From contig CAYXFY010000001.1 in NCBI GenBank assembly GCA_964464395.1, positions 77,918 to 141,917 of the forward strand: a stretch of 64,000 bases of DNA, read 5' to 3'. Shown here piece by piece: positions 28,750 through 58,761 of the stretch. The first letter of the stretch is position 1; the number at the start of each line of letters is the position of its first letter. Origin of the DNA: an uncultured Nitrososphaera sp. (GTDB taxonomy: Archaea > Thermoproteota > Nitrososphaeria > Nitrososphaerales > Nitrososphaeraceae). The notes below the pieces were generated by a model. That model did not search any database, was not told the origin of the DNA, and saw only the letters and a program-made list of their open reading frames with translations. The translations under genes were made by a program, and so were the position numbers.

Positions 28750-28760
28750 TTTTTTATTTT
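28750..28760 (+). terminator. Oligo-T tract between convergent genes
   Basis: TTTTTTATTTT about 35 nt after the channel gene stop. It overlaps the stop of the convergent PhoU-domain gene. Confidence 0.35.
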
Positions 28761-29839
28761 GCCCTGACCGCAGTCTGCTTCTCTATCACTTCGTCTATTG
28801 TCTCGTTGAGCGCCGCTTCTGCGATGTCGCTTGCGTATTCTGCGGTCCTCCTGATGTCTTCTAGTACCAGCTTGATGCTTGCCGGATCCTTCACCCTGTC
28901 CTTCTCTATTGCTGCAACTGCCTCGTCTTCCAGCGCGCGTATCCCCTCCACCGCGTCGACCGTCCTGTCAGCAAGCTGGTAGTCGCGCCTCAACAACGAC
29001 TCGACAGAATCGCCCAGCACCGTGAGCGCAAGGTAGCTCATCTTTTCCACCTTTTGCATTGTCTCCTTTGGCAGCTTTTCCCTGAGCTTTACAGCCATCT
29101 CGGCCACGCCGCACGCGTGGTCGGCGACGCGCTCGATGCTCTTTACCGTCACCCTGTAGCTGAGGCAGTCAGAGGGGTTCTTGAGCCCCATCTCGCGCAG
29201 CACGCGGCCGTTCTGCGTCGCCATCACCAGGTTGCGCAGGACGTACAGTGAAAAGCGGTCGACCTCGTCGTCCGACTTTATCACTTCTCTTGCCAGCTCG
29301 TGGTTGAGCTCGGCAAGCGCGGTCATCGAGTCCCTATGCATCGACGAAGCTATCAGGTACATGCGCCTTATCGCCGTGTTCACGGAAAGCTCCGGCAGCG
29401 ACAGCAGCACCTGCAGGGTGATGATGTCAGACGCGTCGGCAATCATCTCCGTCCCCACCAGGTTGCGCCTGGCGACCTCCCTGACAGCATCGCGGAGCGT
29501 CGGGTTTATCCTGCCGGCCTTTAGCTTCAAATGAATGACGTTGTAGCCTGCAAGGTACATCGACACGACCTTGCGCTTGAGCGAGCTTGCGCCGTCGCCG
29601 GCCGCAATTATTGCAGTCGCTTCGGCAAGCGAGTCTGCCGGGCCGGCGCTTATGGGTACAATGGACAGCGAGTTGTCGGCCTCCCTGACAAGGGTGACTT
29701 GGTCGCCGGCCTTTACGCGCATTTCCTCTATCCACTTTTTTGGCAACGAGAGAACATAGGTGGACCTGCCGGTGAACTGGACCTTGCGGACCTCCCGGTG
29801 GTCGCCTGAAACCGCCTCCTGCCTGGTGGCCGTCTTCAA
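28754..29839 (-). CDS. AbrB/SpoVT-domain plus double PhoU-domain phosphate regulator
   Basis: 361 aa. N-terminal swapped-hairpin motif FTGRSTYVLSLPKKWIEEMRVKAGDQV, then two PhoU-like helical repeats. Confidence 0.8.
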   Translation of the reverse strand: MKTATRQEAVSGDHREVRKVQFTGRSTYVLSLPKKWIEEMRVKAGDQVTLVREADNSLSIVPISAGPADSLAEATAIIAAGDGASSLKRKVVSMYLAGYNVIHLKLKAGRINPTLRDAVREVARRNLVGTEMIADASDIITLQVLLSLPELSVNTAIRRMYLIASSMHRDSMTALAELNHELAREVIKSDDEVDRFSLYVLRNLVMATQNGRVLREMGLKNPSDCLSYRVTVKSIERVADHACGVAEMAVKLREKLPKETMQKVEKMSYLALTVLGDSVESLLRRDYQLADRTVDAVEGIRALEDEAVAAIEKDRVKDPASIKLVLEDIRRTAEYASDIAEAALNETIDEVIEKQTAVRAK

Positions 29840-29910
29840 CGCATGAGACAGGCCGCTAACGGATAAACGGTTTGCGAGAATGGACTATGGCGCGCTATGT
29901 GTTCTATATA

Positions 29911-30573
29911 CTACCGGCGGGGGCTCGACGAGCCCGTGACGATGTAGTTGACCGAGTCTCCCACGTAGCACGCGTGGTCGGCCATCCTCTCCAGGTAGCG
30001 CAGGATCAAAAGTGTCGACACGTAGCAGCGCGGGTCGCTTATCATCTCGTTGGTGCCCTTTTTCGTGCTCGGCGTTATGGCCTCGCGCAGGTGCTTCCTG
30101 TACAGAGCGTCAACCGTGTCGTCCATCCTGTACAGCTTTTCTGCCGCGGTCTTGTCGCGTGCGCGCAGGGCCTGTACGCTCTGGTGGATCATGTCGGTAG
30201 CCGTCTTGGCCATCTCCATCACCGCGGTCTTGTCGCAATGCGATATAGAGCCCATCGCCCCTATGACGTCGACGATGTCGTACGCGTACCGGCCAAAGCG
30301 TGAAAAGCCGTATGATATCTCGATGCACGACCTGATGAAGCGCAGGTCCGTAGCGACTGGCTGGTATCTTGCAATCAGCTCTACTGCAAGCTCGGTCACC
30401 TCGTCCTGCAGCACGCGCAGCTCCTCGGACCACTCGAACAACTGCGTCTTGTCGCCGCTACCCTTTTCATAAAGCTCAATGGCGGTGTCAACTGAGCGCA
30501 CCGAAAGGTCGGCCATCTTCATGATGAGGTTGCTGAGACTTCCAAGGCCGTAGTCGAGCAGGCGGGTCATCAA
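29911..30573 (-). CDS. phoU: Phosphate transport system regulator PhoU
   Basis: 220 aa with two PhoU repeats (ERMADHACYVGDSV). Confidence 0.88.
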   Translation of the reverse strand: MMTRLLDYGLGSLSNLIMKMADLSVRSVDTAIELYEKGSGDKTQLFEWSEELRVLQDEVTELAVELIARYQPVATDLRFIRSCIEISYGFSRFGRYAYDIVDVIGAMGSISHCDKTAVMEMAKTATDMIHQSVQALRARDKTAAEKLYRMDDTVDALYRKHLREAITPSTKKGTNEMISDPRCYVSTLLILRYLERMADHACYVGDSVNYIVTGSSSPRR

Positions 30574-30607
30574 GGAGACCTACAAAAAGGCGCTCTATTG
30601 TGCTTTT

Positions 30608-31486
30608 CTAACCGAACTTGCCGGATATGTAGCGCTCTGTGAGTTCCTTTTCAGGGTTTTCGAATATCTGCTTGGTCGGCCCGTACTCGACGAGCTCGCC
30701 CAGGTACATAAACGCGGTAAAGTCAGAGACGCGGGCGGCCTGCTGCATATTGTGCGTGACTATGATGACTGTCAGGTCTCTCTGCAGATCGTGTATGAGC
30801 TCCTCTATCTTTGCAGACGCAATCGGGTCGAGCGCCGACGTGGGCTCGTCCATCAAAAGAACTTCCGGCTGCATGGCAAGCGCGCGTGCGATGCAGAGGC
30901 GCTGCTGCTGGCCGCCGGACAGGCTGATTCCCGGCTTGTCGAGCTCGTCTTTCACCTCGTCCCACAGGACTGCTCCCTTGAGGCTCTCCTCGACTATCTC
31001 ATTTATCAGGCCCTTGTCGCGGATGCCGTTCAGCTTCAAGCCTGCGGCAACGTTATCGTAAATCGACATCGTCGGGAACGGGTTTGGCTTCTGGAAGACC
31101 ATCCCTATCCTGCGCTTTATCAGGACCGGATCGGTGCCCCTGCCGTAAATGTCGACATCGTCTAGAAACACGCTGCCCTCCACGCGGGCGCCAAGCGTCA
31201 TCTCGTTCATGCGGTTCAGCGAGCGGATGAGCGTGGTCTTGCCGCAGCCGGACGGCCCGATGAGCGCTGTGACCGAGTTCTCCTTGACGTCCAAGTTGAT
31301 GTCCTTGAGCGCCTGCTTGTCAAAGAACCAAGAATTGACGTGCTGGACTGAAACCTTGTAACCCGGCTTTGCCACGGCCCTGGTAAGCTGGTAATCCTGA
31401 CTGCTTAAATACTCCTCGCTTGCCATCCGCCTCTCACTTGGCGCCATGCTAGATAATAATTCCCTAAATGAACTATGTAGGCCCAT
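30608..31486 (-). CDS. pstB: Phosphate ABC transporter ATPase
   Basis: [34 protein letters not shown]. The start may be an internal Met. Confidence 0.92.
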
Positions 31487-31501
31487 ATAGACAGCCGCCG
31501 A

Positions 31502-32410
31502 TTAGAGTCTCGGCGAGGGGACGCTCCCCCTCGTGCGCCTGAGCACCACAAACCTGAGTACCATCGAAAGCGACAGCACTATCAGTATGAGTATGAGCGC
31601 CGCGCCCCAGCCAAAGCTCTCGGCGTGCGCGTACGGGAGAGACGCCAGGCGCCATATCCTCAGCGGCAGCGCGTCGACAGGCGAGGTAAAGCCCTGGAAG
31701 AACAGGCTCGTGCCCAGAATAGTCATGATGAGGGGCGCGGTCTCGCCGGCTATCCTCGACATCGCAAGCACTATGCCCGTCAGTACGCCGCTCTTTGCGG
31801 CCATGAGCGTGATGAATATCGTGACCTTCCACTTTGGTATCCCAAGAGAGTGGCCCGCTTCGCGGACGGAGTTCGGGACGAGCTTGAGCGTTTCCTCCGT
31901 GACGCCGATGACAATCGGTATCATGATGATAGAGAGCGCGACCGCGCCGGCAATGATGTTGAACGAGCCGATTGTGACTACAAGTATGATAAAGCCGACG
32001 ATGCCTATCACTATGGACGGCAGTCCGGTCATCACGTTGTTGAAGAACCTGACTGCGCGTGCAAACTTGGTGTCGCTTGCGTACTCTGATAGGTAGATTC
32101 CCGCAAGCACGCCCACGGGCACACCTATGAGCGACGCAAACCCCACGACTAGGAGCGTGCCCTGTATAGCCGGCCCGATACCACCGCCGCCGGTGATTAT
32201 CGAGCCCTGTGGCTGCGTCAGGAACTCGGCGCTGATCGCGCCGGCGCCGTTCTTGACCACCTCGATGAGTATGCTTCCAAGAGGTATCATGGCAAGCGCC
32301 ACGCAGCCGATGGTGGCGTAGGTGAAGATCATGTTCATCAGCTTGCGCCGGGCGTTGGTCCGCTCGACGGCGTTCTGGAGTATCTTCATGCGCTCCTGGC
32401 GCTTGGACAT
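31502..32410 (-). CDS. pstA: Phosphate ABC transporter permease PstA
   Basis: Start chosen at MSKRQERMKIL (ATG 32408-32410), overlapping the upstream stop as TAATG. The ORF-track extension to 32737 is an Arg/His-rich shadow inside the upstream gene. Confidence 0.85.
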   Translation of the reverse strand: MSKRQERMKILQNAVERTNARRKLMNMIFTYATIGCVALAMIPLGSILIEVVKNGAGAISAEFLTQPQGSIITGGGGIGPAIQGTLLVVGFASLIGVPVGVLAGIYLSEYASDTKFARAVRFFNNVMTGLPSIVIGIVGFIILVVTIGSFNIIAGAVALSIIMIPIVIGVTEETLKLVPNSVREAGHSLGIPKWKVTIFITLMAAKSGVLTGIVLAMSRIAGETAPLIMTILGTSLFFQGFTSPVDALPLRIWRLASLPYAHAESFGWGAALILILIVLSLSMVLRFVVLRRTRGSVPSPRL

Positions 32411-34680
32411 TACTCCCTTCCTCCCGGCGCGACTTTGACCATCCTGGACACGAGGAACTGGGCGGCCACGTTGATGCCCATGGTGAGTATGAACAGCGTC
32501 AGGCCCAGGCCTATGAGCGCCGACACATGGAACGGCGTCGCAGCCTCGTTGAACTCGTTTGCGATGATGCTGGAGAGAGTCTGGCTCGAGCTGAAAAGCG
32601 TGGTCGGTATGGCGGCTATGCCCACCGCGTTGCCTATGACCATCGTGACAAGTATGGTCTCGCCGACAGCGCGCCCAAGTCCTAGGATGGCCGCGCCCAG
32701 TATTCCGGCCTTGGCGTACGGGAACACAAAGTGCCACACGGCCTCAAGGCGCGTCGCGCCAAGGCTGTAGGCTGCCTCGCGCTGCGTGTGCGGGACGGCC
32801 TTGAGCACCTCCCTTGATATCGACGAGATTATGGGGATTATCATAATGGCAAGCACTATGCCGGCAGTCAGTATGTCAAGGCCAAAAGGCGCCCGGCCGA
32901 ATATGGACAGCGACTGGCCCAGGCTGTCGTAGAGCGGCTGCTCTATCAGGTCAAGCACCCAGAACCTGAACACAAAGAGCGCCCACAGGCCGTAGACTAT
33001 GCTCGGCACTGCAGCAAGGATCTCGACGATAAAGCCGACAGGCGTGCCTATCCTTGCCGGCGCTATTTCGGAGATGAACACCGCGATGCCGAGGCTTATG
33101 GGGACGCCTATGGCCATAGCTATGACAGCGCTTGCAAGCGTGCCCGTGATGTATGGAAGGGCGCCGTACGACTCGCGGCCTTCCACAGGGTTCCAGTCGG
33201 TGCCGTAAAAGAACTCGAGCCCCTCAAGCGAAAGCGCGAGCAGCGACCCCTCGCCCACGGAAAACGCGACGAGCGCAAGCATCAGAAGCGAGTAGCCGGC
33301 TGCAGCTATCACTATGAACCTGAACGCCCTGTCCCCGCCCGGCCTTCTGAGCAGCAGGTCGGAGGAGACCTTCTCCCTGTTGTTCCGGCCCTCTGTGCGC
33401 GTTTCTTTCGCGCGACCTGCCCTGCGGCGCCAGTACAGCCAGTAGAAAACAGCTCCCGCGCCGGCCGCCACCACAACAGCTGCTATCTCGGCCCCGATGG
33501 CTGATTGGTCGGCGACGGCGTCCTGCCCCGGCGCAAGCAGCGGCTCGCCCTGGTACGTGAGCGAGCCGAGCGTCTCCTCGTTGAGCCGGACCACAGGTTC
33601 TGGCAGCGGGATGTAGCCGAGCGCGGGTGCAAACCTCTGTCCGTCCGTCACCGCCCACCGCACGAACTCGGCTATCTCGACCGCCTTCTCCTTAGTGACG
33701 GTTGGGTTGGTGCCCATCTCCTTGTACAGCAACAAGTACGAGAAACTGGAAATAGGATACGAGTTTTCGCCGGGAGCGTCGGTCGTTGACACATGCTCCC
33801 AGGACTGGTCGCCTGCAGGGAGCGACCCTGTGGAGGCGGCGATGGCCGCGCTTATGGAATCAAATGACGGCTCGATAAAGTTACCCGCCCTGTTCTGCAG
33901 GTGCGCATATGTCATGCCAGTGGTCAGCGCGTACGACAGCTCGACATAGCCTATGGAGTACGACGTAGCCTTGATGGAGCTCGAGACTCCCTCGTTGCCG
34001 GGAGAGCCCACGCCGGCGGGCCACTGCACCGCCTTGCCCGTACCGACCTTGTCGTACCACTCCTGACTCACCTTCGAGAGGTAGTCCGTCCACACAAACG
34101 TGGTGCCTGAGCCGTCAGACCTGTGGACGACGACTATCTCCCTTGGCGGCAGGCGGATGCCATCATTCATTTCCTGTATGCGCGGGTCGTTCCACCTTGT
34201 TATCTTGCCAAGGAAAATGTCTGCAAGGACCGGCCCGGAAAGCTTCAGCCCGCTGTCCGGTACTTCGGGCATGTTGTACGAAACCACAATCGAGCCGATG
34301 GTCTCAGGGATGTGCACCGCGCCGGGGGCAGCCTCCCTTTCCGAGGCTGAAAGCGGCGCGTCGCTCGCCCCAAAGTCGACGGTCTTTTCTGTAAACTGCC
34401 TTATTCCTCCGCCGCTTCCTATCGACTGGTAGTTGAGGTTGACGTCCGGCCGGACATTCTGGTACTCGACCCGCCAGGTGTCTATCAGGGGAAACGGAAA
34501 AGTCGCGCCGGCGCCCGTGAGCTGGACCTGCGCCGATGCAGCATCCTGCACGGCGTATTCAAGCAACAGCGCGATCAGGGCCATTGCAAGTAATGGCGTA
34601 AGCCAACGCGTGCGCCTTGCCGGCCCAAAAGACTCCACGAGGCAAGTCGTGGCGCTATTGCTATTATAACTAACCCACAT
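32410..34680 (-). CDS. Fused phosphate-binding protein PstS and permease PstC
   Basis: Single 756-aa ORF. aa ~45-400 are PstS-like (GAGATFPFPLIDTW...). A TM linker follows, then a PstC-like six-TM permease with the EAAYSLGATR loop. Confidence 0.8.
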   Translation of the reverse strand: MWVSYNSNSATTCLVESFGPARRTRWLTPLLAMALIALLLEYAVQDAASAQVQLTGAGATFPFPLIDTWRVEYQNVRPDVNLNYQSIGSGGGIRQFTEKTVDFGASDAPLSASEREAAPGAVHIPETIGSIVVSYNMPEVPDSGLKLSGPVLADIFLGKITRWNDPRIQEMNDGIRLPPREIVVVHRSDGSGTTFVWTDYLSKVSQEWYDKVGTGKAVQWPAGVGSPGNEGVSSSIKATSYSIGYVELSYALTTGMTYAHLQNRAGNFIEPSFDSISAAIAASTGSLPAGDQSWEHVSTTDAPGENSYPISSFSYLLLYKEMGTNPTVTKEKAVEIAEFVRWAVTDGQRFAPALGYIPLPEPVVRLNEETLGSLTYQGEPLLAPGQDAVADQSAIGAEIAAVVVAAGAGAVFYWLYWRRRAGRAKETRTEGRNNREKVSSDLLLRRPGGDRAFRFIVIAAAGYSLLMLALVAFSVGEGSLLALSLEGLEFFYGTDWNPVEGRESYGALPYITGTLASAVIAMAIGVPISLGIAVFISEIAPARIGTPVGFIVEILAAVPSIVYGLWALFVFRFWVLDLIEQPLYDSLGQSLSIFGRAPFGLDILTAGIVLAIMIIPIISSISREVLKAVPHTQREAAYSLGATRLEAVWHFVFPYAKAGILGAAILGLGRAVGETILVTMVIGNAVGIAAIPTTLFSSSQTLSSIIANEFNEAATPFHVSALIGLGLTLFILTMGINVAAQFLVSRMVKVAPGGRE

Positions 34681-34691
34681 AATCCCCGTAT

Positions 34692-34703
34692 TCTATATAG
34701 AAC
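34692..34703 (-). promoter_or_regulatory. Palindromic TATA-like box upstream of pstSC (leaderless-type spacing)
   Basis: TTCTATATAGAA lies 12-23 nt upstream of the ATG at 34680. Confidence 0.45.
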
Positions 34704-34981
34704 GCCGCAGGTGTGTGCCTGAGCGGCGGTCTTGCTGCGGCTCATGAAAATTGTTTCACAAAAAAGCACAGACTTTCGTTGACGGTTGTAACCCCGGGAG
34801 CCGTTTTGGGATGAGCGGGGGAACTGCGGGCCGGGGCTGCCAACCTCAACTTTGCTCTCATGTTGTCCCGCAGGAGCAAAAAGGCTATCCAATATAGAAT
34901 AACTGAAAGCTGGTGGACCGGCGCGCTCTACGTGTTAGCTGTTGGCAATGGTTATCAGCAGATTTGCCGAAACAAGTGACG

Positions 34982-35209
34982 ATGCAGGCAAACGTAGTAA
35001 TTGTAAACCAAAAGCTTGCCAGCAAGAAATTCGCGCTGTGCGAGTCGTGCTTCTGGAGCGCGACCCTGCTTGCCGAGCGCGACATTTCGTGCCCGTCGTG
35101 TCCTCGCTCTAACGTTTCGCTCATCCCTCTTGCAAAGGACGAAGAGTACAGGCTGAAGGTCTCCCCTTCCGCGGGGCTCGAGCTGTCGTTTTCAAGGCCG
35201 AAGAGATAG
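34982..35209 (+). CDS. Small zinc-ribbon protein (75 aa)
   Basis: MQANVVIVNQKLASKKFALCESCFWS...CPSCPRS has two CxxC pairs. The ORF-track start at 34913 is less likely. Confidence 0.45.
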   Translation: MQANVVIVNQKLASKKFALCESCFWSATLLAERDISCPSCPRSNVSLIPLAKDEEYRLKVSPSAGLELSFSRPKR

Positions 35210-35249
35210 AATCTGCTTTTATTTTCATACCGGGTTCATATAGACAAGT

Positions 35250-35780
35250 TTGATATACGTGCCTCATGTACCGGCGCACGTGGATCTGTACGTCCTGCGC
35301 CACGGCGAGGCTGGCAAGAGGCTTGCCGCCGGCAGCAAGGATTCCGAGCGGGCGCTTACTGTAGCCGGCGCAAAGGAGGTAGAGGAGATCGCCGGCGCGC
35401 TGGCAAAACTCGGCGTCAAGCCAGGTATTGTAGCGACAAGCCCGCTTGCAAGGGCGCGCCAGACAGCTCTTATCGTTGCCAAGAAGTTGAGGATAAAAAA
35501 CAGGCTAGAAGATTGGGACGAGCTCAAGCCTGAAGGCAGCAGGGCGAAATTATACGAACGACTTGCGCGGTTCAAGCCCGACGCGTCGGTCATGGTAGTC
35601 GGGCACGAGCCGTACCTGAGCACGCTTGTGAGCGAGCTTGCGTTTGACGGCATTAGAGGCAGGGTAGCGATGAAGAAGGCAGGCCTTGCGCGAGTGGACG
35701 TCGTCTCGCTCAGGCCGAGGCCCAAAGGCGAGCTCCGTTGGCTCCTGACTCCCAAGGTGATGAAGAGGTTGGGATCATGA
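35250..35780 (+). CDS. sixA: SixA-type phosphohistidine phosphatase (histidine phosphatase superfamily)
   Basis: LYVLRHGEAG catalytic RHG motif and VGHEP motif. The true start is possibly a few codons downstream. Confidence 0.8.
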   Translation: MIYVPHVPAHVDLYVLRHGEAGKRLAAGSKDSERALTVAGAKEVEEIAGALAKLGVKPGIVATSPLARARQTALIVAKKLRIKNRLEDWDELKPEGSRAKLYERLARFKPDASVMVVGHEPYLSTLVSELAFDGIRGRVAMKKAGLARVDVVSLRPRPKGELRWLLTPKVMKRLGS

Positions 35781-37294
35781 AGGTATCGGTCATAGACCTT
35801 GGCTTCAACTCGGTCAAGATGGTCAACTACGACATCAGAAAGGACGGCAGCTATCTCGCATACCAGCAGGAAGGGGTCAAGGTCAAGCTGGGCGAGGGAT
35901 TGACGAAAGCCGGTTACCTGGCAGGCGAGCCTGTCGAGCGAACGATTGAAGCGCTAAAGCTGTTCCGCGACGTCATCGGCTTTGACTCCATCAGGCACGT
36001 CCTGCCGGTTGCGACAAGCGCTGTGCGCGACGCCGCAAACAGGGCCGACTTTTTGAAGCTTGTCCGGGACCAGACGGGTTTCCAGTTCAAGGTCCTGACG
36101 GGGCAGGAAGAGGCGTTCTATTCCTACGTGGGCGCGCTCCAGTCTACTTGCGTGCCGACGTCCCTCTTTTTCGACTTGGGTGGCGGATCGCTTGAGATGG
36201 TATACACGGAGAACTACTCGATAAAGAAGGTGAGGTCGTACCCGCTGGGCTCTCTCAGGCTCTCGCAAAGGTACGGCGACGGCGGCGTGTTTTCCAAGAA
36301 AGCCTACGGCAAGATGGAGGACCACATACAGGACGTGCTCCCCGAGCGCAAGGAGCTTGGCATGAGCGTGGACACGACGCTTGTAGGCGTCGGCGGGACC
36401 CTGCGCGCAATCGCCCGCTACGAGCAGGAGCTGTCCGACTATGAGCTTGACAAGATACACAACTACAGGCTCGACTATTCGTCTGTATCTGAAATAGCAA
36501 AGAGTCTGTACCGCATGGACGCCGACGAGCTTGCGGAGGCAAAGGCCATCGGAAGCAACAGGGTCGACACCATCGTCGCAGGTTCTACAGTAATTTCGTT
36601 GCTGATGCAAAAGCTTGGCTTTGACAAGGTGGTGGTGAGCGCCCGGGGACTTCGCGAGGGTATTCTGTCGGCTTTTCTGCGCGACGCCAAGATGTTTTAC
36701 AGCGGCACAATCGCTGCCGAGCGCGCAAAGGCGTACGTCACGTTTGCGTGCCAGGTGGAGCCCCTGCCGCAGTTTGCGTTCTCGCTTGTAAGGCCGCTGG
36801 TGGCATCAGGCCTCATGCGCGAAAAAGAGCGCGTCATTCTCAGCCACGCGCTCAAGCAGATGTCAGACCTGCCTGCGGTCACGAACCTGAGCAACCTGTT
36901 TCATTTGATAATAGACGAGGACAACGCGTTTTTGACGCACCGCGAGCAGCTGATACTTGCGCTAGCCATAGTCCACACGAAGAAGGAAAAGACGGTTGAC
37001 TGGCTGTTCTCGCGGTATCGCTCGATCTTGGAGCCGCAGAACATGCGCTCCATAGAAAAGATATCGGCTTGCATCGCGCTTTCCACGATACTAGAGCGAG
37101 CAAAGGCCATGGCCCGGCTTTCGATATCGGGCAAGAAGGTGGCAATCAAGATACTGCAGGGCAGGCAGCCGGTGCCAGCGATGCTGGTCGCCGACGCGCT
37201 CAGGAACTTCGAGCGCGCGTTCAACGTGGATGTAAGCTGCCAAGTCAACAACGCGCCCAAGGGGCAGGCTGCGTCTGTGAGGGTGATAGCATGA
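35777..37294 (+). CDS. ppx: Exopolyphosphatase / GppA-family phosphatase
   Basis: MKVSVIDLGFNSVKMV, DLGGGSLE and VGVGGTLRA are ASKHA-fold Ppx/GppA motifs. ATGA overlap with sixA. Confidence 0.88.
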   Translation: MKVSVIDLGFNSVKMVNYDIRKDGSYLAYQQEGVKVKLGEGLTKAGYLAGEPVERTIEALKLFRDVIGFDSIRHVLPVATSAVRDAANRADFLKLVRDQTGFQFKVLTGQEEAFYSYVGALQSTCVPTSLFFDLGGGSLEMVYTENYSIKKVRSYPLGSLRLSQRYGDGGVFSKKAYGKMEDHIQDVLPERKELGMSVDTTLVGVGGTLRAIARYEQELSDYELDKIHNYRLDYSSVSEIAKSLYRMDADELAEAKAIGSNRVDTIVAGSTVISLLMQKLGFDKVVVSARGLREGILSAFLRDAKMFYSGTIAAERAKAYVTFACQVEPLPQFAFSLVRPLVASGLMREKERVILSHALKQMSDLPAVTNLSNLFHLIIDEDNAFLTHREQLILALAIVHTKKEKTVDWLFSRYRSILEPQNMRSIEKISACIALSTILERAKAMARLSISGKKVAIKILQGRQPVPAMLVADALRNFERAFNVDVSCQVNNAPKGQAASVRVIA

Positions 37295-37974
37295 AAAAGA
37301 TAGAGGGCAAACTGATAATCGTCGAAGGCGTTGACGGCTCGGGCAAGTCGACGCAGATACGGCTTCTTGAAAAGTGGCTAAAGTACGCCGGCGTTCCGGT
37401 GTATTTCACCGAGTGGAACTCGTCAGAGACCGTCAAGGAGATAACGTCAAAGGGCAAGAAGAAGGGGCTGCTGACGCCCATAACGTTCAGCCTGCTGCAT
37501 GCAACCGACTTTGCCGACCGCTATGAAAGACACATACTGCCACTCTTGCGCGCCGGTTATGTTGTCCTTGCAGACAGATACATCTACACGGCGTTTGCCC
37601 GCGACGTGGTTCGCGGCTGCCACCCGCGGTGGGTGCGCCAGATGTACGATTTTGCAGTCAAGCCGGACATCGCCTTCTATTTCCGCGTCCCGGTGGACAT
37701 TGCGTTTGACAGGATAGTCAAGAACAGGCCGAAGCTGAAGTATTACGAGGCGGGCATGGACCTGAACCTGAGCAACGACCCGTACGAAAGTTACCGTATA
37801 TTCCAGGGCAGGATAGTCGAACAGTACGAGTCGATGATAGGCCCGGAGAATTTCGCGGTCATCGACGGCACGACAGACATCGAGGAGCAGCAGCGCCAGG
37901 TGAGGCAGAAGGTGCTTGAGACCCTGCCGAAATCGATGTTCAAGAACCTGCAGAAGGAGGTCGCGGCAAAGTGA
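37291..37974 (+). CDS. Thymidylate-kinase-like P-loop kinase, paralog 1 (canonical P-loop)
   Basis: 227 aa. IIVEGVDGSGKSTQ and LADRYIYT motifs. ATGA overlap with ppx. Confidence 0.8.
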   Translation: MKKIEGKLIIVEGVDGSGKSTQIRLLEKWLKYAGVPVYFTEWNSSETVKEITSKGKKKGLLTPITFSLLHATDFADRYERHILPLLRAGYVVLADRYIYTAFARDVVRGCHPRWVRQMYDFAVKPDIAFYFRVPVDIAFDRIVKNRPKLKYYEAGMDLNLSNDPYESYRIFQGRIVEQYESMIGPENFAVIDGTTDIEEQQRQVRQKVLETLPKSMFKNLQKEVAAK

Positions 37975-38690
37975 GGCGCAAGGCGGCTCCCCAGGTCAGG
38001 ACGCTTGCGTTCTACGGCCACGGCATACCCTACGTCGACGACAGCGAGATAAAGGGCCGGCTGATAGTCATTGAAGGTCCAGACGCGTCTGGAAGGAGCA
38101 CGCAGATAGCCATGATAACAGCGCACCTGGAAGCCGCGGGCCACGCGGTCCTGAACGTCGGGTTGAAGAGGTCGGAGCTTATAAGCCAGGGCATCTTGGA
38201 GGCCAAGCGCAACTTTGCCGGCCGCAAGACGCTCAGCCTCTTTTACGCGGCAGACTTTGCAGACCAGCTCGAAAACAAGATAATCCCGGCGCTGCGCGCC
38301 GGCTATGTTGTCCTTGCCGACAGGTACATCTACACGCTGATGGCAAGGGAGGCTGTCAGGGGAATAAGCAGGCGCTGGTCGCACAACCTGTTCAGCTTTG
38401 CGCTGGTGCCGGACCTAGTCTTCTACCTTGATGTCGAGCCGGAAGAGCTGGTGCACAGGGTGTTCCAGAAAAACGCGTATCTCGACTACTACGAGTCGGG
38501 CGCCGACATGGGGCTCTCCGGCGACATGTTCGAGTCGTTTCTGATATACCAGAGGATGATGGCAAGAGAGTTCCGCAGGATGAAGAAGCGCTACAGCCTC
38601 GTGATAATCGACGGCAACAGGCCCGTCCCGGAGATAAACGCCGACCTGCAGAAGCGCATAGACTCGTTCCTTGCGTCGGTCCGGGGTTGA
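37971..38690 (+). CDS. Thymidylate-kinase-like protein, paralog 2 (P-loop lysine replaced by arginine)
   Basis: 239 aa. IVIEGPDASGRSTQ and LADRYIYT. GTGA overlap with paralog 1. Confidence 0.8.
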   Translation: MRRKAAPQVRTLAFYGHGIPYVDDSEIKGRLIVIEGPDASGRSTQIAMITAHLEAAGHAVLNVGLKRSELISQGILEAKRNFAGRKTLSLFYAADFADQLENKIIPALRAGYVVLADRYIYTLMAREAVRGISRRWSHNLFSFALVPDLVFYLDVEPEELVHRVFQKNAYLDYYESGADMGLSGDMFESFLIYQRMMAREFRRMKKRYSLVIIDGNRPVPEINADLQKRIDSFLASVRG

Positions 38691-39484
38691 AGATGGGCGC
38701 AGGCGCGCTTTTTGCCAGAAGCTTTGGAAAAAGCGCCCAGCGGGTAAAAGCGCGCCTAGCAGCGTATGTGGCAGAACCGGAAAACGAGGAAAACGTGCAC
38801 GACGTCAGGACCTCGCTCAGGCGCCTCGAGGCGTCGTTTTTGTTGATGCCCAAGAAGCTTCGCAAGCGCAACCGCCGGCAGATAGACGCGCACAAGCAGT
38901 TCTTCAGGGCAAACAGCCGGGTGCGCGACTACGACATCATACGCGGCAGGATTGCAGCACGAGCGCAGGGCGACCTCCTGGCGCAGCTTGCCGCAGACCT
39001 TGACAAAAAGAGAAAAACAGAAGCCGAAAGAGCGGCAGGCGACGCGCGGCTTGTCTCCGGCCTGCCGCCTGCAACCCTGAAGGGGCTCGAAGACGGCGAG
39101 CTTGAAAGCCGCATGGGCAAGGTGGCAGGCAGGCTGCTTGGCAAGGTGGAGGAGGGGCTCCCGGTCGTGGTCAAAGACAGGCGCAACGTCGAGGAGCTGC
39201 ACCAGTTGCGCAAGGACCTGAAAAAGCTGCGATACGTCCTAGAAGTGATGCCTGCCGGCGTCAAAAAGCAGTACGAGAAAAAGGCGTTAAAGATGTTGAG
39301 GGGCAAAAAGGCGGAGGACAGGCTCAAGGAGCTGCAGGACGCGCTTGGGGCCATACACGACATCGACGTAACCGTGCAGTACCTGGAGTCACTCCGGATA
39401 AAGGCCGCGGCGCCTCTGATAAGGGCTGAAAAGGCTGAGAGGGACGGGCTTTTCACGAAATTTGCAAAAGATTTCACGACCTGA
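38687..39484 (+). CDS. CHAD-domain protein (polyphosphate-binding helical domain)
   Basis: 265 aa. VHDVRTSLRRLEA and LHQLRKDLKKLRYVLEV are conserved-histidine helix motifs. Overlaps the upstream stop. Confidence 0.8.
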   Translation: MKMGAGALFARSFGKSAQRVKARLAAYVAEPENEENVHDVRTSLRRLEASFLLMPKKLRKRNRRQIDAHKQFFRANSRVRDYDIIRGRIAARAQGDLLAQLAADLDKKRKTEAERAAGDARLVSGLPPATLKGLEDGELESRMGKVAGRLLGKVEEGLPVVVKDRRNVEELHQLRKDLKKLRYVLEVMPAGVKKQYEKKALKMLRGKKAEDRLKELQDALGAIHDIDVTVQYLESLRIKAAAPLIRAEKAERDGLFTKFAKDFTT

Positions 39485-39854: not shown

Positions 39855-40391
39855 GTGTTCTCGGTTGAATATGCACATATACTGACGGCCGCATACAGTA
39901 ACTACGTGACGCGGCAGCACGCCTTGGTCATAGACGCTGACGCCTCGCCTTCCGGCTATATTGCTTGGTACAACCACCACACCGAGAGCAGCAGGATATT
40001 GTCCGTCCGGCCCGCATCCAAAAACGAGCGCTTTGGGGTGCAGAGGATGGAGATGCTTGCAATCTACTTTGCCCTGAGGGACAACCTTGCGCAGATATGC
40101 AGGACGCTAAAGCACGCAAAGCGCCTCGTGATTGAGATTCGCAGCGACTCAAAATCGACAGTCGAGCAGCTGCGCGGGGCAGCAGAAATCCGCGATGCCG
40201 TCATGAAGCGCATAGTGTCTGTCATAGGCAAGCTTTTGGCAAAGATCGGCTGCACGACCATAGTGTTCGACCACCTTGAAAGGTCGCGCAACATCGCCGG
40301 CCTGATGCTCGAACAGCGCAGGAGAAAAGAGCGTGAAAGAGAAATGGAAATGTCGGGCTTGTACGCGTTTGCGCCGCTACCGCTTGCCTGA
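39855..40391 (+). CDS. RNase H-like (RNase HI / RVT_3-type) domain protein
   Basis: 178 aa, GTG start. The spacing of LVIDADAS, MEMLAIYFAL and IRSDSKSTVEQL resembles the RNase HI acidic residues. Basic C-terminal tail. Confidence 0.55.
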   Translation: MFSVEYAHILTAAYSNYVTRQHALVIDADASPSGYIAWYNHHTESSRILSVRPASKNERFGVQRMEMLAIYFALRDNLAQICRTLKHAKRLVIEIRSDSKSTVEQLRGAAEIRDAVMKRIVSVIGKLLAKIGCTTIVFDHLERSRNIAGLMLEQRRRKEREREMEMSGLYAFAPLPLA

Positions 40392-40809: not shown

Positions 40810-41535
40810 ATGCAGATCAAGGAGAAAATAAAGGAAAAATATGGTCGCGTCGCGGTCCTCAACGAGTCGTGCTGTGCACCCGGCGACTGTGGCTGCGGGA
40901 CGCCTGCTCAGGCGGCAGAGATGGTCGGGTACGACAAGAATGACCTTGCAAGCGTGCCTGAGGGCTCGGTGCTTGGGGCGGGCTGCGGCGCCCCGCTCAA
41001 CTTTGCAGGGCTGAAGGAAGGTGAGACCGTCGTCGACTTGGGTTCCGGTGCCGGCATTGACGTGTTCTTGTCGTCAAAGAGAGTGGGCAAGGCTGGAAGG
41101 GCGATAGGCATAGACATGACCGATGAGATGCTTGAAAAGGCAAGAAAGAACGCGGCCGGCTATAACAACGTCGAGTTCAGGAAAGGCGACATAGAAGAGC
41201 GCATACCGGTTGACGACGGTGTTGTGGATGTTGTAATCAGCAACTGCGTCATCAATCTGACTACAGACAAGGCGCGCGCGTTTTCACAAGTTTACAGGAT
41301 ATTGAAGCCCGGCGGCAGGATGGTCATATCCGACCTTGTGACAGACAGGGAAACGCAGCGCATCGACGCGGACAAGTGGTGCGGTTGTATAGACGGCGCG
41401 CAGACGCTTGAAAATTATATTGCTAGCATCAAGAAGGCTGGCTTTGCCGACGTGAGTGTGCTTCAGGAGCAGCCGTACATGGAAGAAGGCGACGGAAGAA
41501 AGATAACAAGCGTGGTTGTGAGAGCCGTGAAATGA
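40810..41535 (+). CDS. arsM: Arsenite S-adenosylmethionine methyltransferase
   Basis: 241 aa. N-terminal Cys cluster CCAPGDCGCG and SAM motif VVDLGSGAGIDV. Confidence 0.85.
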   Translation: MQIKEKIKEKYGRVAVLNESCCAPGDCGCGTPAQAAEMVGYDKNDLASVPEGSVLGAGCGAPLNFAGLKEGETVVDLGSGAGIDVFLSSKRVGKAGRAIGIDMTDEMLEKARKNAAGYNNVEFRKGDIEERIPVDDGVVDVVISNCVINLTTDKARAFSQVYRILKPGGRMVISDLVTDRETQRIDADKWCGCIDGAQTLENYIASIKKAGFADVSVLQEQPYMEEGDGRKITSVVVRAVK

Positions 41536-41936
41536 AGACGATACTTTTCGTGTGTGTGGAAAACGCCGGCAGGAGCCAGATGGCCGAGGGCTTTTTCAAC
41601 AAGTACGCACCAGAGGGGTTTCGCGCGGTTAGCGCCGGCACCAAGCCGGCGTCGCAGATAAACCCTCTTGCCGCGCAAGTCATGAAGGAGGCAGGAATCG
41701 ACATCAGCACGCAGAAATCAAAGATAATCACCGAAGAAATGATACGTGACTCTTCAAAAGCCGTGAACATGGGCTGTATGGACAGGTCCGAGTGCCCACT
41801 CCTGTTTCTGAACAACCCGATTGACTGGGGCATAGAGGACCCGAAAGACCAGCCGATTGAGAAGGTCCGGGAAATACGCGACGAGATAGAGAGAAGAGTA
41901 AAAGAGCTTGTCAACAACCTCGAGCATAGCCGCTAG
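41532..41936 (+). CDS. arsC: Arsenate reductase (LMW-PTPase family)
   Basis: 134 aa. ILFVCVENAGRSQMAEG CX5R motif. ATGA overlap with arsM. Confidence 0.88.
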   Translation: MKTILFVCVENAGRSQMAEGFFNKYAPEGFRAVSAGTKPASQINPLAAQVMKEAGIDISTQKSKIITEEMIRDSSKAVNMGCMDRSECPLLFLNNPIDWGIEDPKDQPIEKVREIRDEIERRVKELVNNLEHSR

Positions 41937-42588
41937 CCTTTCTGTGAACAGGAAAAGGTTTGCAGCAGAGCTTGTCGGCACGTTTTTTGTAGTGGTGTTT
42001 GCTACAGGATCAGTCGTCATCGACGCGCAGGCAGGTGGCGCGTATGGGACGCCGTTTGCGGCAGTAGCGCCAGCGATTGCAGTCGCGGCATCTGTCTACG
42101 CGTTCGGCAAGATTTCCATGGCGCACTTTAACCCTGCAGTGACAATCGCGTTCTTTATCACGGGCCACATTTCAAGGGCGCAGCTGCCTGTATACCTTGG
42201 CGCCGAGATGATAGGCGCAGTTCTTGGGAGCCTGTTCGTGATGACAGTTGTCGGTACTGATGCGAACCTCGGCGCTAACGCGCCTGACTACTCGTTCCCC
42301 CTGCCGCTGATAATCGCGGTCGAGGTGCTTGCCACCGGTCTTCTCATGGCAGTCATCTACGCCGTCGTCTACACGAAAGGGTTGAAGGGATTTAGCGGGA
42401 TAGCGATAGGGGGCATAATCGGGCTTGACATTCTGTTCCTTTCGTTCATATCCGGCGCGTCGATGAACCCCGCGCGGTCGTTTGCGCCCGCGATCTTTTC
42501 TGGTGCTATCGGCGATCTGTGGTTGTACTGGACCACGACTTTTGCCGGCACATCGATAGTAGCCTTTATCGCAAAGAAAAAGTTCTAG
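41908..42588 (+). CDS. MIP-family channel (aquaporin/aquaglyceroporin-like)
   Basis: 226 aa with two NPA boxes (HFNPAVT, MNPARS). Confidence 0.88.
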   Translation: MSTTSSIAASLSVNRKRFAAELVGTFFVVVFATGSVVIDAQAGGAYGTPFAAVAPAIAVAASVYAFGKISMAHFNPAVTIAFFITGHISRAQLPVYLGAEMIGAVLGSLFVMTVVGTDANLGANAPDYSFPLPLIIAVEVLATGLLMAVIYAVVYTKGLKGFSGIAIGGIIGLDILFLSFISGASMNPARSFAPAIFSGAIGDLWLYWTTTFAGTSIVAFIAKKKF

Positions 42589-45785: not shown

Positions 45786-46049
45786 TTACCTTGCCACTAT
45801 CATCGTGTTGGTCCCGCGGATTCCCTTTATCTTGCGGAGCTCCCACGAGACGGTCTTCTGCACGTCCCTGTCGCTGTTTCCCTCGACGACTGCCAGGATG
45901 TCGTACTCCCCAAAAAGCTGGTAGACTTCCTTCACGCCTTCTAGCTGTTTTATCTCCTCTTGCAGGAGCGGCTCAACACCGGTTTCGGTGCTGATAAGAA
46001 CGAATGCCTTGGTCATTAATCGGTCGTTACTGAAGGTAGCCAGCTCCAA
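45786..46049 (-). CDS. Stand-alone Lrp/AsnC-type ligand-binding (RAM) domain protein
   Basis: AFVLISTETGVEPLLQEEIKQLEGVKEVYQLFGEYDILAVVEG. The start is possibly at 46016. Confidence 0.65.
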   Translation of the reverse strand: MELATFSNDRLMTKAFVLISTETGVEPLLQEEIKQLEGVKEVYQLFGEYDILAVVEGNSDRDVQKTVSWELRKIKGIRGTNTMIVAR

Positions 46050-46132
46050 ATGCTAATATAAATTCTGGCAAGCAGGAAAATCTTACGGCTTTTCAGCCTA
46101 AGATGAGAGCGGGTCTGTAAGCCTACTCACGA

Positions 46133-47386
46133 CTACTCCCTCTCCCTAAGGTGCTTCAGCCATTAAATAGTAACCCTTGCAAACAGACACTCACGCTCAA
46201 CTACAAATTCCGTCTCCGTCCAACCAGAGAACAGGAATTCATATTGGAGCAGACGCTGGACGGGTGCAGGTGGGTGTACAACTACTTTCTGGACAAGAAC
46301 ATGTCAGAGTATGACATGAACTATGCTCTCACTGAATTGAAAGAGCAGCATCCCTGGCTCAGAAACTACTATGGCAAGATGCTCCAGATGGTAGGAAAAC
46401 AAGTTGCAGCGGCAAGAAAAGCACTATCTCGCATGAAAAGGAATGGTTGTAAGACGGGTAGGCTGTCATACAAGTACCGTGATGATTTCAATGCTTTTAC
46501 CTACAATCAGACAGGTTTTAGAATCGAGGGAAACGTACTGGTACTTTCCAAAATAGGTCGCATAAAGGCAGTAATGCACAGGTGGCCTGTCCACGTCAAA
46601 CAAGTGATAATATGCAGAAAGAATGGAAGGTGGTATGCCGTTATGGCGTGCGAAATATTTCGCAAGCAGCACTCGACCATTGTCTATCACAGGCCAGTCG
46701 GCATAGATGTCGGTATCACCAAGTTTGCCCATGACTCCGACAATCATGTTGTAGAAAACCCACAGTTTCTTACAAAGATGTTCAAACCAATTAAAAAAGC
46801 TCATCGCAGATTGTCAAAGAGAGAGGTGAGGAGTAGTAACCACATTAAAGCCAAGCATATGCTTGCCCGGCTGTACGAAAGAATCAGCAACAAGCGTCGC
46901 GACTTTTTGCACAAGACATCAACGTACTACTGTAGCCGCTACGACCTGATATTCTTGGAGCGGCTGAGGATATTGAACATGGCAAGGAACCACAATCTTG
47001 CACGCAAGATGTTGGACGCAAGCTGGTCCACGTTCAGCATGATGTGTAACTACAAGGCCAACAGGATGGTGGAAGTAGAGCCGGCGTACTCTTCAATCAA
47101 TTGTTCAAGGTGCGGCAACCGCATCTCCAAGTCGCTTGCAATACGTACTCACTCTTGTCCAAGATGTGGCGTGGTCATTGACAGGGACTACAACTCTGCC
47201 ATCAATCACTTGCAGAAGGGTTTGGAGCTTTTGCAACTACCGGTGGAGCGCCGGGAAGTCACGCCTGTAGAGACTCCAATGGAGTCATTGAAGCAGGAAG
47301 TCTATACAGCAATGTACAGATTACCGGAGAAACGGGGCAACCCTGTCCGGGAAGCCAACGCCTTTCAAAGCTTGGTAGTTCACAAC
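46133..47386 (+). mobile_element. IS200/IS605-family element, tnpB-only, family 1 copy 2
   Basis: Left end CTCCCTCTCCCTAAGGTGCTTCAGCCATTAAATAG. Right end ...CTTGGTAGTTCACAAC. Both ends recur in the mini-element at 49735-49846. Confidence 0.75.
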
Positions 47387-47404
47387 GGTTTACCCCTAGC
47401 TTGA
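46151..47404 (+). CDS. tnpB: TnpB (IS605 OrfB-family RuvC nuclease)
   Basis: 417 aa, roughly 60 percent identical by eye to the 14241-15413 copy. VGIDVGITKF, LIFLERLRILNM, IDRDYNSAINH; CSRC...CPRC. No ATG near the 5' end, so the start codon is uncertain. Confidence 0.9.
   Translation: MLQPLNSNPCKQTLTLNYKFRLRPTREQEFILEQTLDGCRWVYNYFLDKNMSEYDMNYALTELKEQHPWLRNYYGKMLQMVGKQVAAARKALSRMKRNGCKTGRLSYKYRDDFNAFTYNQTGFRIEGNVLVLSKIGRIKAVMHRWPVHVKQVIICRKNGRWYAVMACEIFRKQHSTIVYHRPVGIDVGITKFAHDSDNHVVENPQFLTKMFKPIKKAHRRLSKREVRSSNHIKAKHMLARLYERISNKRRDFLHKTSTYYCSRYDLIFLERLRILNMARNHNLARKMLDASWSTFSMMCNYKANRMVEVEPAYSSINCSRCGNRISKSLAIRTHSCPRCGVVIDRDYNSAINHLQKGLELLQLPVERREVTPVETPMESLKQEVYTAMYRLPEKRGNPVREANAFQSLVVHNGLPLA
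47225..47404 (+). ncRNA. Putative TnpB guide-RNA (omega/reRNA) scaffold overlapping the tnpB 3' end
   Basis: Hairpins CCGGTGGAGCGCCGG and CCGGA...TCCGG are conserved at the nucleotide level across copies even where the protein frame differs. Placement follows the known TnpB omega-RNA layout. Confidence 0.45.
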
Positions 47405-47884
47405 GGCCGTCTTCACGAGCGATATGAGGGGCGACCAGTCCATGTTTTTCTGGAACGCGATCGGATCCTTTGCGGGGTATTTCACCCACCCCTTGACTAT
47501 GGAGAACTTCATCGTCTTTGTCCTGTCGCCCAGGTTTATCTTGACCTTCAGGAGCGTGCCCCACCTCTTTTCCTCCGACGATATGTCCATTATCTGCCTG
47601 TACGGAACCTCAAGATTATCCGGGCTCTTGTCAAGATCGGCCTCCAGATCTTTAACTCCGTAGCCTTCGGCGGGCCTAAAGACGTTCTCGCTGGCCTCAA
47701 ACCGGTTGAGCTGGCGCCTTGAATTGGCGTCGTGAGCGGGGTATTTCATCTCTGTCTTTGAAATGAAAGCCAGTCGCCTGTCGGTGATGACTAGCATGCC
47801 CTCCTTGCCGCGCTTCATGAAGCCGTCCTCTTCGCCCCAGATCCAGAACATATGAGCCTTGATCTGCTCGTCCCAGTCGACCAC
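47396..47884 (-). CDS. Bacterial PH (bPH/GRAM-like) domain protein
   Basis: 162 aa. GMLVITDRRLAFISK motif. Lies between two IS elements; its 3' end overlaps the tnpB ORF end by 9 nt. Confidence 0.6.
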   Translation of the reverse strand: MVDWDEQIKAHMFWIWGEEDGFMKRGKEGMLVITDRRLAFISKTEMKYPAHDANSRRQLNRFEASENVFRPAEGYGVKDLEADLDKSPDNLEVPYRQIMDISSEEKRWGTLLKVKINLGDRTKTMKFSIVKGWVKYPAKDPIAFQKNMDWSPLISLVKTASS

Positions 47885-47909
47885 GATAATGCGGGTAGAA
47901 AATGCGATA

Positions 47910-48075
47910 TTAAAGCGTTAAATGAAGGTTCTGCCGAGTCTTCGGATGACGCAGACCCAACTTGCTTGCATCGACTCTGAGGATTAGTGGTTCCTTCTCC
48001 ACGTTCCCCCTCATCGCTTCACCTGCAAGTCCTTTTGAACTGGCGAACCGGGCCAGCCCTTTGATGGACAGGTTC
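47910..48075 (-). ncRNA. Putative guide-RNA scaffold of the family 2 element
   Basis: The ~150-nt block overlapping the tnpB 3' end is conserved at the nucleotide level in the tnpB-less copy at 58762-58905. Confidence 0.4.
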
Positions 48076-49127: not shown

Positions 49128-49188
49128 TGGGATTCAGAACTAACCGCTCCATATAAAATAGCAATCACCTTGGGGAGAGGGAGTATGC
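47927..49188 (-). mobile_element. IS200/IS605-family element, tnpB-only, family 2
   Basis: Left end (reverse complement) CTCCCTCTCCCCAAGGTG. The right-end block starting GGTTCTGCC (forward strand) is shared with the mini-element at 58762-59095. Confidence 0.7.
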
Positions 49189-49242
49189 TACCTTGTAGAA
49201 ACTAGGCAGAATGAAATGAAAAAAGAAAGGAAAAAGAGGCGT

Positions 49243-58721: not shown

Positions 58722-58761
58722 GCCTCATTGAGAAGGGGTCCGGGGCATTTTAAAGTGTATG

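Follow-up and report, generated by a model that had tools for sequence, protein, structure and literature searches.

Two adjacent genes for thymidylate-kinase-like (Tmk-like) proteins, flanked by genes for an exopolyphosphatase and a CHAD-domain protein, raise the question of whether the archaeon that carries them possesses a polyphosphate kinase hidden under another name. The genes lie in a 64,000-nucleotide (nt) stretch, here called the window, of an uncultured Nitrososphaera sp. (GenBank assembly GCA_964464395.1, contig CAYXFY010000001.1, positions 77,918 to 141,917). Gene identities, orthology, synteny and motif states were established by comparison with characterized proteins and related loci. 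The locus is very probably the Nitrososphaera ortholog of the saci_2017 to saci_2021 polyphosphate (polyP) operon of Sulfolobus acidocaldarius, and the two Tmk-like proteins, here termed subunits A and B, would together constitute the polyphosphate kinase PPK3; activity, subunit roles and physiological direction are taken by analogy from the Sulfolobus enzyme. Soil ammonia-oxidizing archaea would thereby carry a third polyphosphate kinase family in a Sulfolobus-type five-gene operon, beside a high-affinity phosphate transporter, which bears on phosphate storage and ATP buffering in slow-growing, energy-limited nitrifiers. A 2026 publication (PMC12995831) had already described the PPK3 family, the operons in which it is encoded and its occurrence in Nitrososphaeraceae.

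The published PPK3 system

In S. acidocaldarius, Saci_2019 together with Saci_2020 forms the heteromeric, reversible polyphosphate kinase PPK3 (SaPPK3), as reported by Hofmann et al. (J Biol Chem 2026, PMC12995831; preprint 10.1101/2024.08.28.610084). Both proteins are annotated as thymidylate kinases, yet neither has deoxythymidine monophosphate (dTMP) kinase activity, which is instead a property of the unlinked paralog Saci_0893, and the dTMP-binding residues are not conserved in PPK3 (PMC12995831). Saci_2019 is the catalytic subunit (cPPK3) and makes polyP from ATP, whereas Saci_2020 (rPPK3) is inactive alone and lifts the activity of Saci_2019 approximately 10-fold through oligomerization; the assembly is α2β2 and strongly prefers the reaction polyP + ADP → ATP (PMC12995831). 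The two subunits are encoded in one operon comprising saci_2017 (SixA), saci_2018 (PPX), saci_2019 (cPPK3), saci_2020 (rPPK3) and saci_2021 (CHAD). According to the same source, PPK3 occurs mainly in Nitrososphaeraceae and Sulfolobaceae plus “a few bacteria,” both subunits are present in every predicted PPK3 operon, PPX, SixA, CHAD, PstS and PstC genes are found as neighbors, and PPK1 and PPK2 are both absent from the majority of PPK3-bearing genomes (PMC12995831). An earlier note on the window, made from the sequence alone, had pointed to such a Sulfolobus enzyme, composed of two proteins annotated as thymidylate kinases and encoded next to ppx, and in this it was accurate.

Gene content and order of the operon

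Five tightly coupled, codirectional genes were identified on the plus strand between positions 35280 and 39484, in the order SixA, Ppx/GppA, Tmk-like A, Tmk-like B and CHAD, preceded by a putative promoter element:

35247..35257, plus strand: TATA-box-like element A-n-n-TTGATATA, from an alignment of six Nitrososphaera loci
35280..35780, plus strand: sixA, SixA-type histidine phosphatase, 166 amino acids (aa) (TIGR00249, PF00300)
35777..37294, plus strand: ppx, Ppx/GppA-family exopolyphosphatase, 505 aa (PF02541)
37291..37974, plus strand: subunit A, predicted catalytic PPK3 subunit, 227 aa (PF02223, PDB 2plr/5h70)
37971..38690, plus strand: subunit B, predicted regulatory PPK3 subunit, 239 aa (PF02223, Saci_2020 search)
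38693..39484, plus strand: CHAD-domain protein, 263 aa from ATG 38693 (265 aa from TTG 38687) (PF05235)

The SaPPK3 operon likewise consists of these five genes, arranged in an identical order on a single strand and with overlapping or abutting frames. Gene content and order were identical in the loci of S. acidocaldarius, S. tokodaii, M. sedula and S. solfataricus, the four Sulfolobaceae genomes compared here, which were reached by a protein search with STK_15430. Subunit A is 52% identical to Saci_2019 with reciprocal best hits, and B is the apparent counterpart of Saci_2020; together with the shared gene order, this supports the proposal of the earlier note that the operon would encode the PPK3 equivalent of this lineage. 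That note had also regarded SixA and CHAD as additional components; they are not peculiar to this lineage, given that the S. acidocaldarius operon already has the arrangement SixA-Ppx-cPPK3-rPPK3-CHAD.

The gene identities that had been assigned on reading the sequence (a histidine phosphatase, a Ppx/GppA protein, two Tmk-like proteins and a CHAD protein) were upheld by Pfam and NCBIfam models and by matches to structures in the PDB. SixA scored 96.4 bits against the TIGR00249 equivalog cutoff of 74.5 (residues 1 to 158 of 166) and also matched PF00300; its structural matches included 3f2i (E value, 2e−20) and E. coli SixA (1ujb; E value, 2e−7), and it shares 35% identity with Saci_2017. In the Ppx/GppA protein, 32% identical to Saci_2018, PF02541 covered the N-terminal ASKHA domains (residues 30 to 298; E value, 6e−49; 167 bits versus a cutoff of 27), so that the N-terminal 300 aa fit the family and the C-terminal ∼200 aa have no Pfam match. 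The TIGR03706 model, which is restricted to exopolyphosphatases, gave 260 bits and thus fell under its 307-bit cutoff, and the assignment by sequence is therefore made at the level of Ppx/GppA rather than of PPX versus GppA. Structures 6pc0, 3hi0, 1t6c and 1u6z were matched with E values of 1e−35 to 1e−16. The CHAD protein scored 69.4 bits with PF05235 over residues 22 to 233 (gathering cutoff, 25.6) and weakly matched the CHAD structures 6qv7 and 3e0s.

Some features set the window apart from the Sulfolobaceae loci. Its Ppx is 505 aa long, compared with 411 to 420 aa in Sulfolobaceae, and its operon lies beside pst genes, which is not the case in the four Sulfolobaceae loci. The source organism is a mesophile, as judged from its taxonomy, whereas S. 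acidocaldarius is a thermoacidophile.

Conservation and distribution of the A-B pair

A scan of a genome collection returned at least 600 matched stretches; of these 600, 581 encode relatives, and the best 80 were used for comparison. These 80 loci comprise Nitrososphaera, other Nitrososphaerales and ∼30 bacterial loci, mostly from Verrucomicrobiota. The archaeal loci outside Nitrososphaera include metagenome-assembled genomes (MAGs) labeled Nitrosopumilaceae, Nitrosotalea, Nitrosotenuis and Nitrosocosmicus. The nearest protein homologs of the window were from Nitrososphaera; identity reached up to 95% overall and was 89% with “Ca. N. evergladensis.”

The A and B genes were adjacent and codirectional in 76 of the 80 related loci. 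A complete, colinear five-gene order was found in 15 of the 50 loci from Nitrososphaerales, a set that includes many truncated contigs, and in the four Sulfolobaceae genomes. Among the 50 archaeal loci, linkage to the A-B pair was seen for Ppx in 38, for SixA in 34 and for CHAD in 30, at times in rearranged order. As the pair is kept in nearly all loci and the five-gene order recurs, the arrangement is not a chance juxtaposition. In the bacterial loci (L050 to L080, mostly Verrucomicrobiota), A and B mostly stood alone, usually with no ppx, sixA or CHAD gene nearby; in one of these, Pfam identified NADH dehydrogenase and unrelated genes as the neighbors. The A-B pair itself thus forms the conserved core. 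Going beyond the text of the published account, A-B pairs were common in Nitrosopumilaceae-labeled MAGs and in Verrucomicrobiota, the latter suggesting a wider spread than “a few bacteria.”

Subunit A is an ortholog of the catalytic subunit

Subunit A matched PF02223 (E value, 1e−21) and is 38% identical to B. Its best solved structure was STK_15430 of Sulfurisphaera tokodaii (2plr/5h70), with 53% identity over the full length and an E value of 2e−69. This protein (PDB 2plr, 4nzy, 4rzx and 5h70) was deposited as a “probable thymidylate kinase” and is now regarded as a cPPK3 homolog; its crystal structures are of the catalytic subunit alone, and neither the B subunit nor the heteromer has a solved structure.

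The earlier note had proposed a phylogenetic placement of the two proteins relative to the Sulfolobus pair. A neighbor-joining (NJ) tree was built from corrected p-distances of 52 A and B sequences (100 bootstraps; unrooted and with no canonical Tmk outgroup). All A sequences, including those of the four Sulfolobaceae, formed one clan in 100 of 100 bootstraps, within which the Nitrososphaerales and bacterial sequences grouped together, apart from the Sulfolobaceae, in 99 of 100. The placement was thus firm for A, whereas for B, in an unrooted tree, it draws on motifs and a reverse search. Independent duplications in Sulfolobaceae and Nitrososphaerales were considered as an origin of the pair and are excluded by the single A clan, which Sulfolobaceae A joins in all replicates. 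Taken together with the sequence identities, A is clearly an ortholog of cPPK3 (Saci_2019/STK_15430).

Residues were compared across 80 A and 76 B sequences plus four Sulfolobaceae sequences of each type. The A sequences have an invariant GSGKST P-loop (GVDGSGKST in the window) and the DRY motif. Conserved basic residues were found at K49, K54, K56 to K58, R77, R80, R132, R146, K150 and R169, most of them common to Sulfolobaceae cPPK3; K56 to K58, R77, R80, R132, R146 and K150 were conserved across all 80 A sequences and the four Sulfolobaceae cPPK3 proteins. Like Saci_2019, subunit A has the P-loop, the DRY motif and the basic residues of the proposed cleft. The counterparts of R77, R80, R132, R146 and K150 in B are Q99, N102, D154, N168 and D172, and B resembles rPPK3 in that the basic residues of the cleft are mostly gone. 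According to the published work, cPPK3 has conserved basic residues lining the polyP cleft, and rPPK3 does not (PMC12995831). The pattern of basic residues in A and nonbasic ones in B fits that cleft, on which these alignment columns are presumed to lie.

The NCBIfam equivalog model for dTMP kinase, TIGR00041, gave A a marginal pass (85.0 bits versus a cutoff of 83.25), and annotation pipelines will therefore go on naming the cPPK3 subunit a dTMP kinase. Homologs of both A and B carry this name in NCBI, JGI and UniRef, a lasting annotation error that affects both PPK3 subunits.

Subunit B, a probable counterpart of rPPK3 with unusual motifs

Subunit B matched PF02223 (E value, 4e−20), and its best solved structure was again STK_15430 (E value, 5e−35). 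When Saci_2020 was searched against the window, the best match was B (E value, 6e−30) rather than A (E value, 3e−17). The motifs ADQxEN, YTL and LDxxES are common to B of the window and the four Sulfolobaceae rPPK3 proteins, and at these sites A sequences have ADRYER, YTA and LKxxEAG. Subunit B is likely orthologous to rPPK3 (Saci_2020), as judged from these shared features. The four Sulfolobaceae rPPK3 genes lie at the following positions of their loci:

L081, 5621-6253
L083, 4626-5243
L084, 4624-5256
L085, 4617-5243

The P-loop of B in the window reads GPDASGRST, in which the Walker A lysine is replaced by arginine. The same arginine (G-x-D-x-S-G-R-S/T) was found in all 75 B orthologs with a readable P-loop, from both Nitrososphaerales and Verrucomicrobiota. 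The DRX motif of B is ADRYIYT, and every readable B ortholog from the 80 loci has DRY or DRF. Outside Sulfolobaceae, R126, R130, R163 and an IDG loop were conserved at or near 100%; a conserved FYGxG motif forms part of an N-terminal extension, 25 aa long and with FYGHGI in the window. In a more distant survey, 110 full-length sequences among the 150 best representatives of 50%-identity clusters were aligned to B; the Walker A residue was Arg in 66, Lys in 31 (A-type sequences included) and Cys in 8, and the DRY arginine was kept in nearly all. Across phyla, the conservation of B comes close to that of A, with, for example, 55% identity to Verrucomicrobiota, compared with 64% for A. Pairs from many Verrucomicrobiota MAGs were 61 to 66% (A) and 52 to 61% (B) identical to the window, with GSGR and DRY in B; an example among the bacterial loci is the pair at 5971-7433 of L051.

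The Sulfolobaceae proteins depart from this pattern. All four rPPK3 sequences, Saci_2020 included, have DGY where B of the window has DRY, as well as Trp at the R126 position; IDG is lost and the 25-aa extension is lacking. At the Walker A position, those of S. tokodaii and M. sedula have Arg, whereas those of S. acidocaldarius (Saci_2020) and S. solfataricus have Lys. The inactivity of rPPK3 has been ascribed to replacement of the arginine of the DRX motif (PMC12995831), and in B of the window this arginine is in place. The retained arginine is no argument against membership in PPK3, as its replacement describes Sulfolobaceae rather than the whole family; DRX loss as an explanation of rPPK3 inactivity would then be specific to Sulfolobaceae. 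From the Lys-to-Arg exchange and the lost cleft residues, B is here inferred to be catalytically impaired; its conservation also points to strong constraint, and it may bind nucleotide. That B of Nitrososphaerales and bacteria keeps the DRY arginine and carries the Walker A Lys-to-Arg exchange goes beyond the text of the published account. This helper form is a modest refinement that leaves the nature of the system unchanged.

Weighing of alternative readings

Membership of both proteins in PF02223, the pass of A on the dTMP kinase model and the names given to their homologs in public databases would all agree with two ordinary dTMP kinases whose position beside ppx is incidental, and canonical Tmk (TIGR00041/PF02223) shares with A and B the fold family, the P-loop and the DRY motif. 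Such a reading is nonetheless very improbable. The assayed orthologs Saci_2019 and Saci_2020 have no dTMP kinase activity (PMC12995831), B falls under the TIGR00041 cutoff (82.0 versus 83.25 bits), and the best canonical Tmk structures were matched with E values of 1e−13 to 1e−11, compared with 2e−69 for A to STK_15430. In HMMER alignments, motifs around the dTMP site were replaced in A and B, EPGG by EWNSS or GLKRS, LLF-ADR by HATDFADR or YAADFADQ, and AYQG by FARD or MARE, the dTMP-site residues having been taken from PMC12995831 and general knowledge and compared by alignment. Moreover, A and B are conserved as a pair and, in archaea, together with ppx, sixA and CHAD. No third Tmk-like gene was found in the 64-kb window by tblastn. 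Neither A nor B matched the PPK2 family (PF03976) in Pfam at an E value of ≤0.01.

Several points weigh against the assignment as a PPK3 operon or limit what would follow from it. The biochemistry of PPK3 is confined to the S. acidocaldarius enzyme and includes no member from Nitrososphaerales. In the paper on the N. evergladensis genome, homologs of PPK and PPX that resemble those of methanogens are reported (PMC4084955); some Nitrososphaera may thus also hold a canonical PPK, and PPK3 would then be nonessential for synthesis. The same report favors an operon that serves polyP consumption only, through hydrolysis by Ppx and regeneration of ATP, with net synthesis by PPK1 or PPK2 encoded elsewhere. 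This is improbable, considering that most PPK3 genomes lack both enzymes and that Saci_2019 forms polyP from ATP (PMC12995831), and no PPK1 or PPK2 was detected among 20 further open reading frames (ORFs) of the 64-kb window scanned with Pfam. For B, blastp gave 128 bits to Saci_2019 and 114 bits to Saci_2020, and Sulfolobaceae B formed a long branch in the NJ tree built with no canonical Tmk outgroup, so that its orthology draws on shared motifs and the reverse search rather than on a rooted tree. In keeping the DRY arginine, R126, R130, R163 and the IDG loop, B also misfits the published rationale for rPPK3 inactivity and may be more than a scaffold. With its Walker A arginine, DRY and lid arginines it could bind adenine nucleotide and, within a PPK3 subtype, either sense ATP/ADP allosterically or provide a second active site of low rate. 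DRY, R126, R130, R163 and IDG, conserved at ∼100%, speak for this reading, as do the arginine in 75 of 75 P-loops, its rank as the commonest Walker A residue among the distant 50%-identity representatives, and the conservation of B across phyla almost to the level of A, with only the long-branched Sulfolobaceae lacking DRY, R126 and IDG. Replacement of the Walker A lysine by arginine, on the other hand, usually cripples phosphoryl transfer in P-loop enzymes, and B lacks the majority of the basic residues in the proposed polyP cleft. The AlphaFold2 model of B, from an alignment of 41 close homologs, had a mean predicted local distance difference test score of 57.9 and a predicted template modeling score of 0.60, too poor to interpret, and gives this reading no structural support. 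Saci_2020, for its part, is inactive on its own (PMC12995831). Such a role of B is accordingly possible but rather unlikely. A specific form of it may be offered tentatively, in which PPK3 outside Sulfolobaceae is a distinct and numerically dominant subtype, whose B is a constrained pseudokinase that binds ATP or ADP with no turnover and sets the threshold of the ATP/ADP switch between making and consuming polyP. Candidate hallmarks in B would be the Walker A sequence GSGR[ST]T, the DRY clamp, the lid arginines, the adenine loop and the FYGxG N-terminal extension. If this were true, the published rationale based on the DRX arginine would be a peculiarity of Sulfolobaceae.

Proposed function of the operon

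With PPK3 as the favored assignment, a leaderless mRNA starting at approximately 35280 and driven by the TATA-like box would carry five translationally coupled genes. A and B would assemble into a heteromeric PPK3 that reversibly transfers terminal phosphate between ATP/ADP and polyP. A would be the catalytic subunit, in which the Walker A lysine and the clamp arginine of DRY are intact and a basic polyP cleft is conserved, and it would be activated by B, a noncatalytic or weakly catalytic partner with which it oligomerizes. If SaPPK3 is taken as the model, polyP would be made only at a high ATP/ADP ratio, and ATP would otherwise be regenerated from polyP. Ppx would hydrolyze polyP to inorganic phosphate (Pi), CHAD would presumably sit on the polyP granule, as studies of other CHAD proteins suggest, SixA may have some regulatory role, and the adjacent Pst transporter would supply Pi. 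The description of the operon as a module for polyP synthesis and turnover, given in the earlier note, is apt, but to call its enzyme a polyP synthase would overstate the case, since SaPPK3 strongly prefers polyP + ADP → ATP.

PPK2 (PF03976) offers a parallel, as both it and PPK3 are P-loop kinases that prefer polyP-dependent phosphorylation of nucleotides. In two-domain class II PPK2, an inactive N-terminal domain supports an active one as rPPK3 does for cPPK3, an analogy drawn in PMC12995831; the helper is a fused domain in class II PPK2 and a separate polypeptide in PPK3. The ADP and polyP sites of PPK3 are swapped relative to those of PPK2 (PMC12995831).

Start codons and promoter

The chain of overlapping codons listed in the earlier note (ATGA at 35777-35780, ATGA at 37291-37294, GTGA at 37971-37974 and TTGA at 38687-38690) is present in full, but the last junction is more probably a spacer than an overlap, because TTG 38687 is unconserved (CTG in the closest relative) whereas ATG 38693 is conserved. 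ATG 38693, 2 nt past the stop codon of the subunit B gene, is thus the probable start of the CHAD gene.

A start of sixA at TTG 35250 had been assumed mechanically and was rejected, as this codon falls inside the conserved TTGATATA box. The aligned, conserved start is GTG at 35280, which corresponds to ATG in three Nitrososphaera relatives. The TTGATATA element (35250 to 35257) was invariant in the window and five Nitrososphaera loci, whereas the surrounding upstream sequence was variable. The box lies ∼23 nt, and its center ∼26 nt, upstream of the sixA start codon, a spacing that suggests a leaderless mRNA under the general architecture of archaeal promoters. The TTGATATA box probably serves as the TATA box from which such a leaderless transcript of the operon is made.

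The phosphate-uptake cluster and other features of the window

Pfam confirmed that the operon lies beside a pstSC-pstA-pstB-phoU cluster, as had been noted earlier; the cluster is divergent and 600 bp from sixA. It was resolved as follows, together with a small ORF in the intergenic region:

28754..34680, minus strand: divergent phosphate-uptake cluster (Pfam)
32410-34680, minus strand: PstS-PstC fusion, 756 aa (PF12849+PF00528)
31502-32410, minus strand: PstA (PF00528)
30608-31486, minus strand: PstB (PF00005)
29911-30573, minus strand: PhoU (PF01895)
28754-29839, minus strand: AbrB/MazE-PhoU regulator-like protein (PF04014+PF01895)
34982..35209, plus strand: small ORF, 75 aa, with two CxxC pairs, zinc-ribbon-like (translation; no Pfam match)

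The PstS phosphate-binding domain and the PstC permease are fused in one polypeptide, and the start of PstA overlaps by 1 nt (TAATG) at 32410. The pst genes also adjoin the operon in Nitrososphaera loci L001 to L005. The small ORF between pstSC and sixA was found in the same position only in L002 to L005 and L021 (tblastn; 32 to 51% identity). Immediately upstream of where pstSC starts (34689-34702) is a perfect palindrome of 12 nt, TTCTATATAGAA, and a related copy, TATCCAATATAGAATA, is situated ∼200 bp beyond it, upstream of the small ORF (34886-34901). The two may represent TATA boxes or a site for a regulator. A repeat search of the pst-sixA intergenic region returned short TATA-like palindromes and nothing common to both promoters.

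Downstream of the operon, an ORF of 178 aa (39855-40391) has no Pfam match and is conserved in Nitrososphaera. It is followed at 40810-42588 (plus strand) by three overlapping genes encoding an S-adenosylmethionine (SAM) methyltransferase (Methyltransf_31), a low-molecular-weight phosphatase/ArsC-like protein (LMWPc) and an MIP channel, a trio that resembles a gene cluster for arsenic detoxification and lies beside the phosphate genes. A TnpB/IS605 OrfB-type gene (OrfB_IS605, with a Cas12f1-like TNB domain) was identified at 46151-47404 (plus strand), within a low-GC patch at 46000-50000 (GC content of 0.47 to 0.49, compared with ∼0.56 elsewhere); the gene is probably an insertion element. Rfam models gave no match at gathering thresholds anywhere in the window, and tRNAs were likewise absent.

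The window derives from an archaeal chromosome and carries genes for both subunits of DNA polymerase D (DP1 and DP2), Cdc6 and TiaS, as identified by Pfam scan. The genes for the large subunit of DNA polymerase D (54597-57971, minus strand), DP1 (62297-63820, minus strand) and Cdc6/Orc1 (61036-62307, plus strand) are clustered, and a replication origin may lie near this cluster (54597-63820).

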